Positions 3,398 through 9,497 of a stretch of 26,892 nucleotides of DNA are shown in pieces (positions within the stretch are counted from its first letter, which is position 1; each line of letters opens with the position of its first letter). Source of the stretch: a virus. Taxonomy: Duplodnaviria; Heunggongvirae; Uroviricota; Caudoviricetes. Location of the stretch: IMG/VR virus record IMGVR_UViG_2534682096_000007; one strand, written 5' to 3'. A program made the position numbers and the translations under genes. The notes under the pieces are model-generated. The model was given only the letters and a program-made list of their open reading frames with translations. It searched no databases and had not been told where the DNA came from.

Positions 3398-4421
<1,024 letters not shown>

Positions 4422-4785
4422 ATTAATATTAAATCGGATTATTTTTAGCGCTGAATGTGAAATTTAAATAAAAAGGACTCTTCCATGAGTCAAAATCCTT
4501 GAAATCTTAAGGGTAAGATAAAAGGTCATTAGACAGAATGACACGTTTTATTAATAAATAAAGCTATTGTTTCATTCGTGTGTTTTTCTTTACAAAAGTA
4601 ATCCTTGCTATGGTTGGTTAATCATGCGTTAATGGTGTTCTGGTTTGTTACAAAATTATCTGAAGCAGTCATTGTTATAATTTTATTATTTGTACCTCTT
4701 GAGATTTCCTTGTTGGTTTTTCTCTCTGATATTTTTTTTTCGGACCATTCTGCCCAAGGGCTAACTTCTTCAAAAGGTAATAATG
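4422..4785 (+). promoter_or_regulatory. long AT-rich leader and promoter region of the csp gene (cspA-family style 5' UTR)
   Basis: About 360 nt of AT-rich non-coding DNA directly upstream of a CspA-family gene; cspA-family genes are known to have long structured 5' UTRs. Promoter and cold-box elements are not mapped, so exact boundaries are unknown. Confidence 0.35.
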
Positions 4786-4998
4786 ATGTCTAACAAAATG
4801 ACTGGTTTAGTGAAATGGTTTAACCCTGAAAAAGGTTTTGGTTTCATCACGCCGAAAGATGGTAGCAAAGATGTGTTTGTGCATTTCTCAGCTATTCAGA
4901 GCAACGATTTCAAAACGTTAACTGAGAATCAGGAAGTCGAATTTGGTATTGAGAACGGACCTAAAGGCCCTGCAGCTGTTCATGTAGTGGCACTTTGA
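4786..4998 (+). CDS. CspA-family cold-shock protein (CspB/CspI-like, prophage-borne)
   Basis: 70 aa [42 protein letters not shown]... with RNP1-like KGFGFI and RNP2-like VFVHF motifs. AAGG 4774-4777 upstream. An extra in-frame ATG lies at 4783. Confidence 0.92.
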
Positions 4999-5202
4999 GG
5001 TAGAAAATATTACAAACCATATTCACTTTAGATGCCCGTGTTGCCATGGTTCTCAGTATAGAACATCATCTTTTGATGTTTCTGACAGAAATCCTTTCGG
5101 GGCAAAATGTATCTTTTGTAAATCAATGATGATTACATTTGATAATATTTCACAATACTTAAATGTTAGCCATCTGTCGTTAGATTTAAGAAAGTGAAAA
5201 TG

Positions 5203-5226
5203 AAGGCTCCTTCGGGAGCTTTTTTG
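5203..5226 (+). terminator. rho-independent terminator
   Basis: Stem GGCTCC (5205-5210) / GGAGC (5215-5219) with loop TTCG, followed by TTTTTT (5220-5225). Lies about 200 nt downstream of the csp stop. Confidence 0.55.
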
Positions 5227-5269
5227 CTTAGTGTCTAGTCGATGGATACTCACATATTACGGTAACATT

Positions 5270-5500
5270 ATGAAAAAAATAATAGTTTTTTTTAACTCTG
5301 AACCAGCAATGGTAGTGCCAGTGATGACCGGAGTTAACACCATCATGCGTGAATATCCAAATGGCGAAACAACACACCTCACTGTAATGGCTGCAGGGTT
5401 TCCATCTCTGACCGGAGATCATAAAGTCATTTATGTAGCAGCGGATCGACATGTAACTTCAGAAGAAATTCTGGAAGCAGCAATGAGACTCTTGAATTGA
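5270..5500 (+). CDS. small hypothetical protein, YmcE/YnfN-like by position (between csp and gns genes)
   Basis: 76 aa from ATG 5270 (MKKIIVFFNSEPAMVVPVMTGVNT...). Occupies the slot between a cold-shock gene and a gns gene, as in cspG-ymcE-gnsA and cspI-ynfN-gnsB of K-12. Weak RBS; family assignment by synteny only. Confidence 0.45.
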   Translation: MKKIIVFFNSEPAMVVPVMTGVNTIMREYPNGETTHLTVMAAGFPSLTGDHKVIYVAADRHVTSEEILEAAMRLLN

Positions 5501-5672
5501 TTTGATTCTAATGCATTGATAATAAATGATAATCATCTTTATCTGTTTGTGTGAAATTTAGACCGTCATATGTTGATTATTGCGATGTTTCATCTTATCT
5601 TTTATACGTTTGCTCCATATAATTGACACTACTGTGTACCAGGACAGTCATAACAGACTAAAAGAGGAAATG

Positions 5673-5846
5673 ATGAACATTGAAGAGTTAAAAACAAAAA
5701 CAGAAGCAGATATTTCTGAATATATAACAAAAAAAATCATTGAGCTTAAGAAAAAGACCGGGAAAGAAGTTACCTGTATCCAGTTTACTGCACGGGAAAA
5801 AATGACTGGTCTTGAAAGCTATGATATCAAGATTGATTTAATCTAG
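5673..5846 (+). CDS. gnsB: GnsA/GnsB-family protein
   Basis: 57 aa MNIEELKTKTEADISEYITKKIIELKKKTGKEVTCIQFTAREKMTGLESYDIKIDLI, matching the Gns family in length and sequence as recalled. RBS AAGAGGAAA 5661-5669. The ORF-track start at 5580 is rejected. Whether it is the A or B paralogue is uncertain. Confidence 0.8.
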   Translation: MNIEELKTKTEADISEYITKKIIELKKKTGKEVTCIQFTAREKMTGLESYDIKIDLI

Positions 5847-5908
5847 CATGTTTATAGTATTAGCATCAATTTCTCATCAGATGCTATTCAACAATACAAA
5901 TTACCCAT

Positions 5909-5934
5909 AAACCTCGTTTTTACGGGGTTTTGTT
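5909..5934 (+). terminator. possible rho-independent terminator after gns
   Basis: Stem ACCTCG (5911-5916) / CGGGGT (5923-5928, one G-U pair), loop TTTTTA, then TTTGTT. Weak U-tract. Confidence 0.35.
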
Positions 5935-6141
5935 ATATTTAAACATTACCGAATAGATATAAATCTCGATTGTCGATGGTATTGGTTGTGTGACAATACC
6001 TAGTCTTTCCGGTATGCCTGAAGAGAATACAAACGACAGATTATGTAAGGGAAACGCGCTGAAACTTTCACTCTTTCATGCTGAGTGATTTGACGTTATA
6101 TTTTTAGCCGCAAGTGAAGAGCAAACGAATGGAGCGACAAA

Positions 6142-6348
6142 ATGCATAAAGATCAATACACTGATGCCCCCTCCCAGGAGCAGGTTCGTGTAAAAACTAT
6201 GCTTAATAGCACCATTTCGATGGGTTACCCGGATGTTGTAATTGCATGTATAGAACATCAAGTATCTCTGGAAGCATTCAGGGCAATTGAGGCCGCGTTA
6301 GTAAAGCACGATAAGAATACGAAGGATTATTCCCTGGTGGTTGACTGA
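6142..6348 (+). CDS. hypothetical 68-aa protein
   Basis: GGAG at 6130-6133 sits 8 nt upstream of ATG 6142. Single ORF in an otherwise non-coding stretch between gns and the terminase genes. No family recognised. Confidence 0.4.
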
Positions 6349-6710
6349 TCACCATAACTGCTAACCATTCTGACCATTTCACAAGTGACAGAGTCAATAT
6401 CGTATTCTGTCACTGTAAGGCTAATACAGTACTGCAATTCAACTACAGCAATGCCTCGTATTTAGGTGAATTTACAATATCGTCCAGTTCGGATGCCGGC
6501 TGCATTTCTGAAGATAAGGCATTTCGGTTCGCGTATTTTCCCCTCATGCTCGTCAGTCCTGCGCGTAGTAAGAAACAGGACACTCACACTAATTTGTGTG
6601 GGCATGCTGTGATGTCCTTCTGAATTATCCCCATGCCATTATGTAACGCTCTGTTTCAGATGCTCGTCACGGTTGTCAGGCTGTCGGGTCCTCCCAGTGG
6701 GGGTCCCTGC

Positions 6711-6797
6711 CACGGGGCGGGAGCGTCGCGGAAAAAGGCTAGTTTTTGAAATTTTATTCGTCATCACCACTACTGTAATTGATTGATATTACAGTGG
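6711..6797 (+). other. putative cos site (cosN-like cleavage region plus downstream terminase-binding region) with a flanking inverted repeat
   Basis: CACGGGGCGGGAGCGTCGCGG (about 6711-6731) resembles the lambda cohesive-end region (ACGGGGCGGCGACCTCGCGGG as I recall it). Downstream TTCGTCATCAC resembles lambda TTCGTCATAAC. An 8-bp inverted repeat ACTGTAAT-N8-ATTACAGT lies at about 6766-6796. Located about 100-190 nt upstream of terS, the normal position of cos for a GpA-type terminase. Confidence 0.45.
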
Positions 6798-6900
6798 TTT
6801 TATTTTTATGGTGTCGATTCTGATTGTTTTTTGTTCATCACTAACACCGTTTGCCTAAAGTTGTTCGCAAGATGCATGTTTAAAACATTCTGGAGCGGGT

Positions 6901-7395
6901 ATGGATCGAGAGTTAAAAAATCTGACGCTGAATATCAGTCAACTGGCGGCATTGTCAGGTGTACATCGCCAGACTGCTGCGGCAAGGCTGCAAAATCTAC
7001 CCGTTGCAGGGGGGCATGAAAGCAACCTCAAGCTTTATCGGGTGGTTGATATTGTGTCGGCATTTCTGGCATTACCACCGCCGGTTGCAGAAGGCGAAAT
7101 GGACGCGCATGAGCGCAAAGCCTGGTATCAGTCTGAACGTGAGCGTCTTAAGTTCGAACAGGAAACGGCACAACTCATTCCGGCCAGTGATGTCAGACGG
7201 GAGTTTGCCATCTGGGCAAAAGCGGTCGTGCAGGTGCTGGAGACATTACCGGATATTCTTGAACGTGACTGCGGTCTGCAGCCTGCCGCTGTGAGCCGTG
7301 TTCAGTCCATTATTGATGATCTGCGCGATCAGATAGCCCTGCGGGTGACTGAAGCAGGTGCGGATGATGAGGAGGAATTACAGCAGGAGGAGTAA
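6901..7395 (+). CDS. terminase small subunit (DNA-packaging protein, HTH-containing)
   Basis: 164 aa. Lies immediately upstream of the large terminase, with its stop overlapping the TerL start (TAATG at 7393-7397). N-terminal HTH-like segment NISQLAALSGVHRQTAAARL and acidic C-terminus. GGAG 6892-6895 upstream. Confidence 0.7.
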   Translation: MDRELKNLTLNISQLAALSGVHRQTAAARLQNLPVAGGHESNLKLYRVVDIVSAFLALPPPVAEGEMDAHERKAWYQSERERLKFEQETAQLIPASDVRREFAIWAKAVVQVLETLPDILERDCGLQPAAVSRVQSIIDDLRDQIALRVTEAGADDEEELQQEE

Positions 7396-9497
7396 TGCTG
7401 AATCAGGAAACCGCAAAGGCAGCACGAACCGATTCAGGTTATATCCTTCGCGCACCGAGTCGAATGCGGGTTGCTGATGCCGTTGCTCAGTATATGCGGG
7501 TGCCTATGGGGGCAGGGAACTCAGTCCCGTGGGATCCGCTGGTGGCACCGTATGTTATTGAGCCTATGAACTGCCTGGCCTCGCGTGAATACGACGCAGT
7601 GATATTTGTTGGCCCGGCACGAACCGGCAAGACTATCGGCCTGATTGACGGCTGGGTGATTTACAACGTGATTTGCGATCCTGCTGATATGCTGATCATT
7701 CAGATGACGGAGGAAAAAGCCCGCGAACACTCCAAAAAACGACTCGCCAGAACGTTTCGCGTCAGCCCGGAAGTGGTCAGTCGCCTGAGTCCGAACAAAA
7801 ATGACAACAACGTTTATGACAGAACATTCCTTGCTGGCAACTACCTGAAAATCGGCTGGCCGTCAGTCAATATCATGTCTTCATCAGATTATAAATGCGT
7901 GGCGCTGACGGATTATGACCGTTTTCCGGAAGATATTGATGGTGAGGGGGATGCCTTCTCTCTTGCCTCAAAACGTACCACCACATTTATGTCCAGTGGT
8001 ATGACGCTGGTGGAGAGTTCCCCCGGCAGGGATGTGAAGGATGTGAAATGGCGACGGACTTCACCGCATGAGGCTCCACCAACCACGGGGATCCTGTCGC
8101 TCTATAACCGTGGCGATCGCCGTCGCTGGTACTGGCCCTGTCCACACTGTGGTGAGTATTTTCAGCCCTGCGGCGATGTGGTTGCTGGTTTCCGTGATAT
8201 TGCCGATCCTGTGCTGGCAAGTGAGGCGGCTTATATTCAGTGTCCTTCCTGTTCAGGACGGATTTTGCCTGAACAAAAACGCGAGCTGAACGGACGTGGG
8301 GTCTGGTTACGGGATGGTGAATCCATCAATGCAGATGGCAGTCGTTATGGTGATCCCCGGCGTTCACGTATTGCGTCATTCTGGATGGAGGGTCCGGCAG
8401 CTGCTTATCAGACACTCTCGCAACTCGTTTACAAACTGCTTACTGCAGAACAGGAATACGAGACAACCGGAAGTGAAGAGACACTCAAGACGGTTATCAA
8501 TACCGACTGGGGATTACCTTATCTTCCCCGCGCCAGCATGGAGCAACGAAAAAGTGAATTGCTTGAGCAGCGGGCAGAGCCAGTTCCTTCCCGCAGTGTG
8601 CCGGATGGCGTTAATTTCCTTGTGGCGACAGTGGATGTGCAGGCGGGACGTCATCGCCGTTTTGTGGTTCAGGTAACGGGCTATGGCAGCCGTGGCGAAC
8701 GCTGGATTATTGATCGTTACAACATCACGCAGTCATTGCGCGGTGACAGCGACGGGGAGAGCCAGCGAATTGATCCGGCCAGCTATCCGGAAGACTGGGA
8801 TGTCCTGCTGACGGATGTTTTTCATAAAAGCTGGCCGCTGGCCTCCGATCCTTCTCAACAAATGCGACTGATGGCAATGGCGGTGGACTCCGGCGGTGAA
8901 GACGGGGTCACTGATAATGCCTATAAATTCTGGCGTCGTTGCCGTCGTGATGGCCTTGGTAAACGTATTTACCTGTTTAAGGGTGACAGCATCCGGCGCG
9001 CAAAACTGATCAGCCGTACATTCCCTGATAACACCGGACGAACGGGCCGCCGGGCGCAGGCCGCAGGTGATGTGCCGCTCTGGCTTCTTCAGACGGATGC
9101 CCTGAAAGACCGGGTGAATAACGCGTTATGGCGTGACTCGCCAGGTCCCGGCTATGTGCATTTCCCTGACTGGCTGGGGAGCTGGTTTTACGACGAACTG
9201 ACGTATGAAGAGCGGAGCAGTGACGGGAAATGGAGTAAGCCGGGTCGCGGTGCCAACGAAGCTTTTGACCTGATGGTGTATGCCGAGGCTCTGGTCATTC
9301 TGCATGGATACGAAAAGATCCGCTGGCCGGATGCACCGGAGTGGGCGAGCCGGGAAACCTGGCTGGAGTGTGTCCCGGACAGTACCGAACCGTCACCCAC
9401 ACCGGAACCGGTATCCACGCCTGTTAAAAAACAAAAACGGAAGAAAACAGTAACTGACGATGTTAACCCCTGGCTGACTTCCGGAGGATGGTTATGA
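7395..9497 (+). CDS. terminase large subunit, lambda GpA family
   Basis: 700 aa. Walker A P-loop VGPARTGKT near the N-terminus; size and architecture of GpA-type terminases; followed by gpW-like and portal genes. RBS AGGAGGAG 7385-7391. Confidence 0.9.
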   Translation: MLNQETAKAARTDSGYILRAPSRMRVADAVAQYMRVPMGAGNSVPWDPLVAPYVIEPMNCLASREYDAVIFVGPARTGKTIGLIDGWVIYNVICDPADMLIIQMTEEKAREHSKKRLARTFRVSPEVVSRLSPNKNDNNVYDRTFLAGNYLKIGWPSVNIMSSSDYKCVALTDYDRFPEDIDGEGDAFSLASKRTTTFMSSGMTLVESSPGRDVKDVKWRRTSPHEAPPTTGILSLYNRGDRRRWYWPCPHCGEYFQPCGDVVAGFRDIADPVLASEAAYIQCPSCSGRILPEQKRELNGRGVWLRDGESINADGSRYGDPRRSRIASFWMEGPAAAYQTLSQLVYKLLTAEQEYETTGSEETLKTVINTDWGLPYLPRASMEQRKSELLEQRAEPVPSRSVPDGVNFLVATVDVQAGRHRRFVVQVTGYGSRGERWIIDRYNITQSLRGDSDGESQRIDPASYPEDWDVLLTDVFHKSWPLASDPSQQMRLMAMAVDSGGEDGVTDNAYKFWRRCRRDGLGKRIYLFKGDSIRRAKLISRTFPDNTGRTGRRAQAAGDVPLWLLQTDALKDRVNNALWRDSPGPGYVHFPDWLGSWFYDELTYEERSSDGKWSKPGRGANEAFDLMVYAEALVILHGYEKIRWPDAPEWASRETWLECVPDSTEPSPTPEPVSTPVKKQKRKKTVTDDVNPWLTSGGWL

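Follow-up and report, generated by a model that had tools for sequence, protein, structure and literature searches.

The cos packaging sites of phage lambda and its relatives comprise cosQ, the nicking site cosN and cosB, the part that is bound by the small terminase subunit (TerS) and integration host factor (IHF). cosQ is a highly conserved 7-bp site (PMC4669245) that has been reported to be conserved in lambda-like phages along with the CG dinucleotides at the nicks; natural variation of the cohesive end is common and tolerated within bp 7-12, the end of Gifsy-1, for example, differing at positions 8, 9 and 11 (PMC4669245). In lambda, 21, phi80 and Gifsy-1, cosB is of the 'complex' kind, with the order R3-I1-R2-R1 and with R2 inverted (PMC9026076); the 'simple' cosB of N15 involves a single critical R3, at bp 48-59, and a remote rR2 inside terS (PMC4669245). 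Here we compare with these systems the kilobase between gns and terS (positions 5847-6900) of the tailed-virus record IMGVR_UViG_2534682096_000007, a stretch of 26,892 nucleotides that we refer to as the window. An earlier, sequence-only reading had singled out this kilobase as low-coding DNA with one orphan open reading frame (ORF) and had noted that DNA next to cos is often the site of cosQ, of regulatory RNAs or of unannotated small genes. We conclude that the region very probably contains a complete, standard packaging site of the lambda type with flanking non-coding DNA, preceded by a homologue of ybcW. This is a previously unannotated case of a textbook packaging system that involves no new mechanism.

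cosQ and cosN

We consider cosQ and cosN first (Table 1). The heptamer GGGTCCT, which bears out the guess that cosQ might be found here, is invariant across all aligned relatives of the locus, and its first base lies 29 nt before the top-strand nick, compared with 30 nt in lambda (GGGTCCT-N22-ACG/GGGCGGGAGCGT in the window versus GGGTCCT-N23-ACG/GGGCGGCGACCT in lambda, with slashes standing for nicks). The putative cohesive end GGGCGGGAGCGT equals GGGCGGCGACCT of lambda in 8 of the 12 positions, the first six bases being identical and the differences falling at bp 7, 8, 9 and 11, and the flanks have been kept on both sides (ACG/GGGCGGGAGCGT/CGCGG here, ACG/GGGCGGCGACCT/CGCGG in lambda). In the alignment anchored on the nick, lambda reads ...GGGTCCTTTCCGGTGATCCGACAGGTTACG/GGGCGGCGACCT/CGCGGG... 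and the window reads ...GGGTCCTCCCAGTGGGGGTCCCTGCCACG/GGGCGGGAGCGT/CGCGGA.... This is the pattern of variation that has been reported for lambda-like phages, with the differences confined to bp 7-12 and the CG dinucleotides intact; three of the four differing positions are those at which Gifsy-1 varies. This combination of cosQ and cosN is found a single time in the window, and 100 shuffled sequences did not contain it. The nicks would fall at 6714/6715 on the top strand and at 6726/6727 on the bottom strand. Thus, the sequence-only reading was correct in that cosQ is present, but the region that it placed next to cos appears itself to hold the entire site.

The ends of deposited phage records agree with this placement. 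The linear record of phage Tritos (OV696610) starts with GGGCGGGAGCGTCGCGGAAAAAGGCTAGTTTTTG at the base equivalent to 6715 and ends with ...CCACG, and the record of phage cdtI (AB285204) shows the same start base and the same CCACG end; between cosQ and +34, both records match the window perfectly or almost perfectly. The mEp460_4F5 record is opened 5 nt earlier, at CCACG. The papers on Tritos and Ayreon report no experimental mapping of the ends, the Ayreon authors having only 'expected' cos to lie upstream of terS, no more than about 1 kb away, and the single paper retrieved by a literature search with the cohesive-end sequence was unrelated.

Several observations on cosN-like sequences elsewhere should be recorded here. 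CP-1639, VT1-Sakai and Stx2_14040, which encode a TerS of the same family, carry GGGTCCT-N24-CG/GGGCGGGCGG(G)CGCGGAAAAAGG, a cosN-like segment that is 1-2 nt shorter, so that the length of the overhang may differ or some of these cos sites may be defective. The cosN core at 6711-6748 is found at 100% identity in NZ_CP174001.1 (617-654), a 43-kb plasmid record of E. coli strain SZQ1 that could represent a phage-plasmid or the episomal genome of a phage that shares this cosN. Chi sites, GCTGGTGG, are located at 3812, 7538 and 8006, all on the plus strand (three versus 1.1 expected, a number reached in 11% of the shuffles), and two of the three are found to the right of cos, at most 1.3 kb away.

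Table 1. Features of the region between gns and the terminase genes (positions in the window; offsets are counted from the nick)
Feature	Positions	Strand	Description
gns	5673-5846		Pfam GnsAB_toxin, 7e-33, full-length match (54/54 positions)
Intrinsic-terminator-like hairpin and T-run	5909-5930	+	directly after gns; AAACCTCG-TTTT-...GGGGTTT, then TGTTATATTT; 9 pairs and a T-rich tail (consensus scan)
Divergent ybcV/ybcW intergenic remnant	5976-6141		blastn against Tritos and lambda
ybcW homologue, 68 aa	6142-6348	+	phrog_657, 4.6e-48 over 68/68 positions; GGAG 7 nt before ATG
Non-coding 3' flank of ybcW	6349-6493		about 81% identical to lambda 47945-48090 (megablast, blastn)
Non-coding block upstream of cosQ	6526-6685		about 160 bp; both ATGCTCGTCA copies, GTCCTG...CAGGAC and CACAC...GTGTG hairpins
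cosQ, GGGTCCT	6686-6692	+	identical to lambda 48473-48479 (nick-anchored)
cosN, putative nicking site	6710-6731		cohesive end GGGCGGGAGCGT at 6715-6726, 12 nt, 5' overhang; CG on both flanks
cosN-proximal spacer, CGCGGAAAAAGGCTAGTTTTTG	6727-6748		+13 to +34; conserved
cosB, putative	6749-6845		between cosN and terS
Candidate R3, TCGTCATCACC	6758-6768	+	+44 to +54; TCRWCAYC matches at 6758 and 6761
I1-like IHF site, core TATCAATCAATTA	6776-6788	-	+62 to +74; perfect match to WATCAANNNNTTR
Candidate R2, inverted	6810-6817	-	+96; GGTGTCGA on the plus strand, TCGACACC on the minus strand, which matches the motif
Candidate R1, TTCATCACT	6834-6842	+	+120 to +128; conserved T-run GTTTTTTG just before
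terS (small terminase subunit)	6901-7395	+	GGAG at 6892-6895; DUF1441/phrog_141; N-terminal helix-turn-helix-like NISQLAALSGVHRQTAAARL
terL	7395-9497		Pfam GpA_ATPase, 1.6e-71; GpA_nuclease, 1.1e-85

The putative cosB and the small terminase subunit

The DNA between cosN and terS fits the complex order of cosB, with an IHF consensus located between the candidate R3 and an inverted R2 and with R1 following, the repeats being short. The window resembles lambda in this candidate order and shares with it a distance of about 190 bp to the start of terS (the ATG lies 186 nt after the nick here and 190 nt after it in lambda) and a large terminase subunit (TerL) of the GpA type; the R sequences themselves are unrelated, of the TCATCAC type here and of the CGTTTCC type in lambda, as is the sequence upstream of cosQ. 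The arrangement, with three repeats and an IHF site, is also distinct from the simple cosB of N15. The position of R3 is analogous to that in lambda and N15, and related CAYCAYCA repeats are present at the equivalent position in PhiR47_1, CP-1639, VT1-Sakai and the Stx2 phages. PhiR47_1, CP-1639 and Gifsy-2 retain an equivalent of R2, GTGTCGAA, which there pairs with R1 (TTCGACAC) as a perfect inverted repeat. In the window, R1 repeats the R3 core TCATCAC in direct orientation, and its position is occupied by TTCATCAC or TTCGACA(C/T) in all DUF1441-type relatives examined. The layout of R3, inverted R2 and R1 is common to PhiR47_1, CP-1639, VT1-Sakai, the Stx2 phages and Gifsy-2, and the sequences of the repeats co-vary. 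By homology with lambda, TerS and IHF would be expected to bind these candidate sites.

The IHF consensus has two matches in the whole 26.9 kb, one of which is the I1-like site, and an A/T-rich tract lies 5' of its core on the same strand, at 6799-6809. A perfect consensus at +62 to +64, on the same strand, is present in 61 of the 74 distinct downstream sequences, including the unrelated cosB type of Tritos and cdtI. The core is bracketed by an 11-nt AT-rich inverted repeat (6769-6779 and 6788-6798), which may either belong to the IHF/TerS arrangement or act as a weak terminator in front of terS. With TTTATTTTTA behind it, this repeat receives a terminator-like score, and in one relative both of its arms change at equivalent positions (A to G).

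The TerS encoded downstream matches Pfam DUF1441 (2.7e-41) and phrog_141, 'terminase small subunit' (7e-74), whereas lambda Nu1 belongs to Phage_Nu1/phrog_57. The two families cross-match, TerS to phrog_57 at 8e-10 and, in reverse, Nu1 to phrog_141 at 5.6e-8, and hhalign places TerS residues 9-59 on Nu1 residues 2-55, the N-terminal helix-turn-helix, with E = 0.009 and a low probability. Hence this TerS appears to be a distant relative of the Phage_Nu1 family and not a member of it. The same TerS family includes the small terminase subunits of the Salmonella prophages Gifsy-2 (47.5% identical) and Fels-1 (40.5%). In the sources that we read on the DUF1441 TerS family, no experimental dissection of its cosB was found, and NCBIfam contains no model that matches either TerS or YbcW.

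Several points weigh against the interpretation of the locus as a working lambda-type cos. The starts of the cdtI and Tritos records, for which the papers that we read state no method, may have been set by analogy with lambda, and the virion ends of this prophage, like those of phages with this exact cosB, should be taken as putative. The mEp460_4F5 record reads GGGCGGGAGCGCGG, with 3 nt missing inside the proposed cohesive end, which may have arisen in assembly or may mean that the end varies more than we assume. The R sites are short degenerate repeats, R1 is one base off TCRWCAYC, and this motif is not enriched across the window (14 observed, 9 expected). Pairwise BLASTP comparison of TerS with Nu1 yields E = 20, that is, no similarity, and a search of PDB sequences with TerS found no solved relative. 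Finally, we may be dealing with a defective prophage, whose cos would then go unused. We rate the assignment of the R sites below that of cosQ and cosN because the repeats are short and the binding is something that we infer. As a separate observation on the cohesive end, mEp460 reads GGGCGGGAGCGG, with G for T at bp 12; together with the mEp460_4F5 sequence, this might reflect an assembly artefact or natural variation.

The proposed course of packaging is modelled throughout on homology with lambda, from which the cutting, the binding of TerS and IHF and the choice of the repeats that matter are all projected. During lytic growth, a late transcript would read through the region and concatemeric DNA would be made. 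TerS, as a DUF1441 protein distantly related to Nu1, would bind R3, the inverted R2 and R1 in cosB (6758-6842), assisted by the bend that IHF would induce at 6776-6788, and the GpA-type TerL would thereby be placed for staggered nicks in cosN, at the two positions given above. These nicks, 12 bp apart, would leave 12-nt 5' cohesive ends, GGGCGGGAGCGT. Packaging would then run rightward from terS, and, when the motor reaches the next cos, cosQ would permit the terminating cut.

Prophage context and exchange of packaging modules

The order of genes around the locus is gns, the 68-aa ORF, terS and terL, and the window as a whole covers the late and head-tail regions of a lambdoid prophage. Positions 5847-6900 match, at 99.9% identity, a Qin-like prophage of E. 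coli STEC1590, in which the order is antiterminator, lysis genes, cspI, ymcF, ynfR, ynfN, gnsB, 'hypothetical protein', DUF1441 protein, large terminase, portal and protease/capsid fusion. The kilobase is very probably the junction at which a lambdoid prophage of the Qin/mEp460 kind has its right end joined to its left end. That it is low-coding is real, and the coordinates and sequence statements of the sequence-only reading check out; the region has this appearance because ybcV has been lost, because the small ybcW alone is left and because the last 375 bp or so (6526-6900) constitute the packaging region. The ORF at 6142-6348, with its ribosome-binding site, is indeed the single credible one, and the statement that no other ORF of at least 60 aa exists holds except for two TTG-initiated ORFs in the mechanical list, both of which look spurious: one of 61 aa on the minus strand (6076-6261), antisense to ybcW, and one of 78 aa (6783-7019) that runs out of frame into terS.

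The packaging region itself also has near-identical counterparts in isolated phages. Across 6727-7395, the window is 98.5-99.1% identical to mEp460_4F5, phi458 and 569R4, and across 6876-7395 it is 98.8% identical to Ayreon. Taken together, mEp460, Ayreon, phi458 and vB_EcoS-569R4 share cosB and terS DNA at 98.5-99.4% identity and TerS at 99-100%; they differ in that their right arm lacks ybcW (Rz is followed by a short ORF and then by the 6526-6685 block) and in that their block is of the other of two main haplotypes, about 80% identical to the one in the window.

A different set of relatives reveals where the modules are joined. HannyBb and several E. coli prophages match only up to 6748, and the sequences of Tritos and cdtI diverge after +34, their cosB being different from +35 on (the GGCGGCGGCAGC region and TTTTCACCTG repeats). 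Position 6748 thus appears to mark a mosaic joint with other types of cosB and terS. The cosQ-to-+34 core (6686-6748) is also found in phages that encode a 73%-identical TerL and that have a different cosB and a different TerS N-terminus. In Tritos, the first 134 aa of TerL show 73% identity and the C-terminal half of TerS is conserved, whereas the N-terminal DNA-binding segment of TerS has diverged (42% identity overall), which matches the mosaic joint in the DNA. We are inclined to believe that the core travels with TerL and that cosB travels with the DNA-binding end of TerS. Upstream and downstream types combine in many ways among 120 IMG/VR loci with an identical cosN.

Among the Salmonella prophages, which apart from the features discussed here have diverged from the window, Gifsy-1 resembles it, by the published description of its cosB, in the order R3-I1-R2-R1 (PMC9026076). 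Gifsy-2 has the arrangement GTGTCGAA ... GTTTTTTG-TTCGACAC and an IHF-like site upstream of a DUF1441 terS; it differs in that no GGGTCCT was seen upstream (500-680 region) and in that its cosN-like sequence, CCACG GGTGGCTTCGGGCT CGCGGG, is markedly different.

The significance of these findings is mainly for annotation. They place cos, including cosQ, the nicks and the candidate IHF and TerS sites, for a widespread group of prophages and phages of E. coli with a DUF1441 TerS, namely the Qin-like, mEp460, Ayreon and phi458 group; the examined records of this group leave cos unannotated, and pipelines call contradictory 'hypothetical proteins' in its place. Moreover, the reassortment of the cosQ-to-+34 core and the cassette of cosB and the TerS N-terminus as separate modules is relevant for predicting which helpers package which DNA, including cos-bearing satellites.

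The non-coding block upstream of cosQ

The DNA immediately to the left of cosQ is the part of the region for which an additional function can be contemplated. The block at 6526-6685 is kept at 76-100% identity in 48 of the 66 distinct upstream contexts found among the 120 loci with an identical cosN, and Tritos shares it as well; it is not present in cdtI, CP-1639 or the Stx-type phages. The block comes in two main haplotypes that are split by indels of 1, 5 and 8 nt, and for this reason we regard it as non-coding; annotation pipelines place contradictory ORFs across it, on differing strands. It travels with the cosQ-cosN core through otherwise unrelated right arms, and its two hairpins are kept despite a divergence of about 20%. 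There is a slim chance that it is a functional accessory element that lambda lacks, such as one that enhances the termination of packaging or one that gives rise to a discrete RNA from the late transcript.

Under the first of these options, the block would be an accessory packaging signal, that is, a termination enhancer, an 'R4-like' site for TerS or a site at which a host factor acts with cosQ, and the functional cos would extend further left than in lambda. In addition to the linkage with cosQ-cosN across many mosaic contexts, this possibility derives some appeal from the second copy of the repeat in the block, which contains TCGTCAC, and from the other haplotype, in which TTCGTCAT equals the first 8 nt of ATTCGTCATCACC, the sequence of the R3 region. 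However, about a quarter of the distinct contexts with an identical cosN lack the block, cosQ is immediately preceded by a different sequence, one that resembles lambda, in cdtI and in the Stx and CP-1639 types, and linkage alone is to be expected beside a strongly selected site. The block is also paired with TerS and cosB of the Tritos type, in which the R3 region is unrelated, so that it cannot be a specificity site for the present TerS. An accessory signal in the block seems unlikely to us.

The short repeats to which the sequence-only reading had drawn attention lie within this block. The copies of ATGCTCGTCA are indeed present at 6546 and 6660; a repeated 10-mer, however, appears in 40% of 1000 dinucleotide shuffles, and the element is not conserved as a repeat because the two 10-mers read ATGCTCGCCA and ACGTTCGTCA in the other haplotype. 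Similarly, CACAC-TAATTT-GTGTG is found at 6585-6600 as described but does not exceed the chance level, given that 5-bp hairpins with loops of 3-8 nt number 6, compared with 7.4 expected in shuffled sequences.

Could the non-coding DNA instead specify a small regulatory RNA, or an RNA element that acts in cis within the late transcript, in the block or in the hairpin at 6384-6414? The persistence of the block next to cosN in 48 of the 66 contexts, where the sequence further upstream differs, could be taken in this sense, as could the GTCCTG/CAGGAC stems, which are nearly invariant while the length of the loop varies and in which a single C-to-T substitution leaves the bases able to pair, as G-U, on the plus strand. 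The 6384-6414 hairpin, a perfect 9-bp inverted repeat, AGTGACAGA-N13-TCTGTCACT, has an 8-bp stem core (GTGACAGA/TCTGTCAC) that is identical in the window, lambda and Tritos and a loop that diverges; a 9-bp stem, however, turns up in about 7% of the shuffles, and the homologues of this hairpin in the phage collection represent about six haplotypes, too few to judge constraint. Against an RNA stands the outcome of two scans with Rfam 15, a permissive one of 4400-7600 and one of the whole window at the gathering score, which gave no match within 5847-6900 at E <= 1 or at the gathering score, respectively, the sole match being a cspA thermoregulator outside this region. ARAGORN predicted no tRNA or tmRNA, and Tandem Repeats Finder gave no hits. 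On both strands, fold energies deviate from those of shuffled sequences by no more than about 1 to 1.4 standard deviations (z-scores of -1.0 and -0.55 for the two strands of 6526-6714 and of -1.4 for 6349-6500), and alifold, applied to 45 distinct sequences of the block, recovered only the obvious small hairpins, with no covariation or compensatory changes. A scan for sigma-70 promoters yielded 6 sites versus 4.6 expected, none of them convincing, and no convincing pair of promoter and terminator was identified. Because the haplotypes are few and their divergence, about 20%, is similar to that of the third codon positions of ybcW, there is no measurable constraint on the sequence. Given the lack of an Rfam match, the weak fold z-scores and the absence of compensatory changes, we dropped the structured-RNA reading, and the suggestion of a regulatory RNA in this kilobase must be considered very unlikely.

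The suggestion of small unannotated genes fared no better. A scan for small ORFs that required a Shine-Dalgarno sequence revealed, apart from ybcW, no conserved coding sequence. Its candidates were two ORFs on the minus strand, one of 34 aa (6443-6547) and one of 47 aa (6462-6605), with AGGA 9 nt upstream, and several phage records annotate 'hypothetical proteins', in one case a 'putative late gene regulator', across the block. These two ORFs, the only others that bear a Shine-Dalgarno-like motif, were rejected since both are frameshifted in Tritos, where the 47-aa ORF is shortened to 27 aa. The ORFs annotated in the phage records vary in strand and extent with the pipeline, and some of them cross the cos cut site; furthermore, not only do the haplotypes of the block differ by the indels of 1, 5 and 8 nt but the flank shared with lambda (6349-6493) also carries 1-nt indels. 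We consider it extremely improbable that the region hides further protein-coding genes.

ybcW and the left flank

The 68-aa ORF, which the sequence-only reading called an orphan, belongs with its full-length phrog_657 match to the family of lambda lambdap79 and YbcW of the K-12 prophage DLP12. Positions 6026-6493 show 83% identity to the stretch of lambda that includes lambdap79 (47629-48090) and also match the ybcW locus of DLP12 in K-12; with more sensitive blastn, the homology to lambda and Tritos reaches left to 5976. The protein has the same 68-aa length as lambdap79 and DLP12 YbcW, as well as the Tritos homologue, and its C-terminal 50 residues are strongly conserved, whereas the N-terminal 16 residues have diverged from those of lambdap79 and DLP12 YbcW. 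The position of the gene, between lysis or accessory genes and cos, is shared by lambda, Tritos and DLP12, with conserved flanks; the partner gene ybcV is missing here. This module accounts for most of the matches in host genomes: 3331 of 5426 complete E. coli genomes match some part of 5847-6900, most often the ybcW module. A single-sequence AlphaFold2 model (predicted local distance difference test score, pLDDT, of 75) predicts a small protein that consists of three helices, at residues 12-26, 30-38 and 43-59; a search of PDB folds with this model returned no significant match, so that no function can be proposed. The non-coding spacer between ybcW and cos is about 340 bp long, and its first part, the 3' flank of the gene, differs from lambda to an extent close to that of the third codon positions within ybcW.

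To the left of ybcW, the comparison with Tritos shows how the region was shortened. Window positions 5600-5983, homologous to the 3' flank of gnsB in that phage, correspond by blastn to Tritos 671-1015, and window positions 5976-6400 to Tritos 1604-2037; the 588 bp that separate the two Tritos segments (1016-1603) carry ybcV (DUF1398), which is missing here, with the joint at about 5976-5983. In Tritos, ybcV sits between gnsB and ybcW, and it occupies the equivalent place in lambda (lambdap78) and DLP12; the homology to lambda begins immediately past the start codon of lambdap78. Binding sites for FNR and PdhR have been reported in the ybcV/ybcW intergenic region of K-12 (PMC1802558, PMC7660256). 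The part of the intergenic region with these sites appears to fall within the missing stretch, and, if the sites are gone, ybcW in this prophage may have lost that host regulation.

Two further observations concern the genes upstream. The gns ORF of the window is full-length, and PGAP calls gnsB of the 99.9%-identical STEC1590 prophage (6826-7000 of that record) a frameshifted pseudogene. The cspA thermoregulator (Rfam RF01766) has a full-length match on the plus strand at 4627-5044, with 109 bits versus a gathering score of 78, which spans the 5' untranslated region and the coding region of a cspI-like cold-shock gene (4783-4998).

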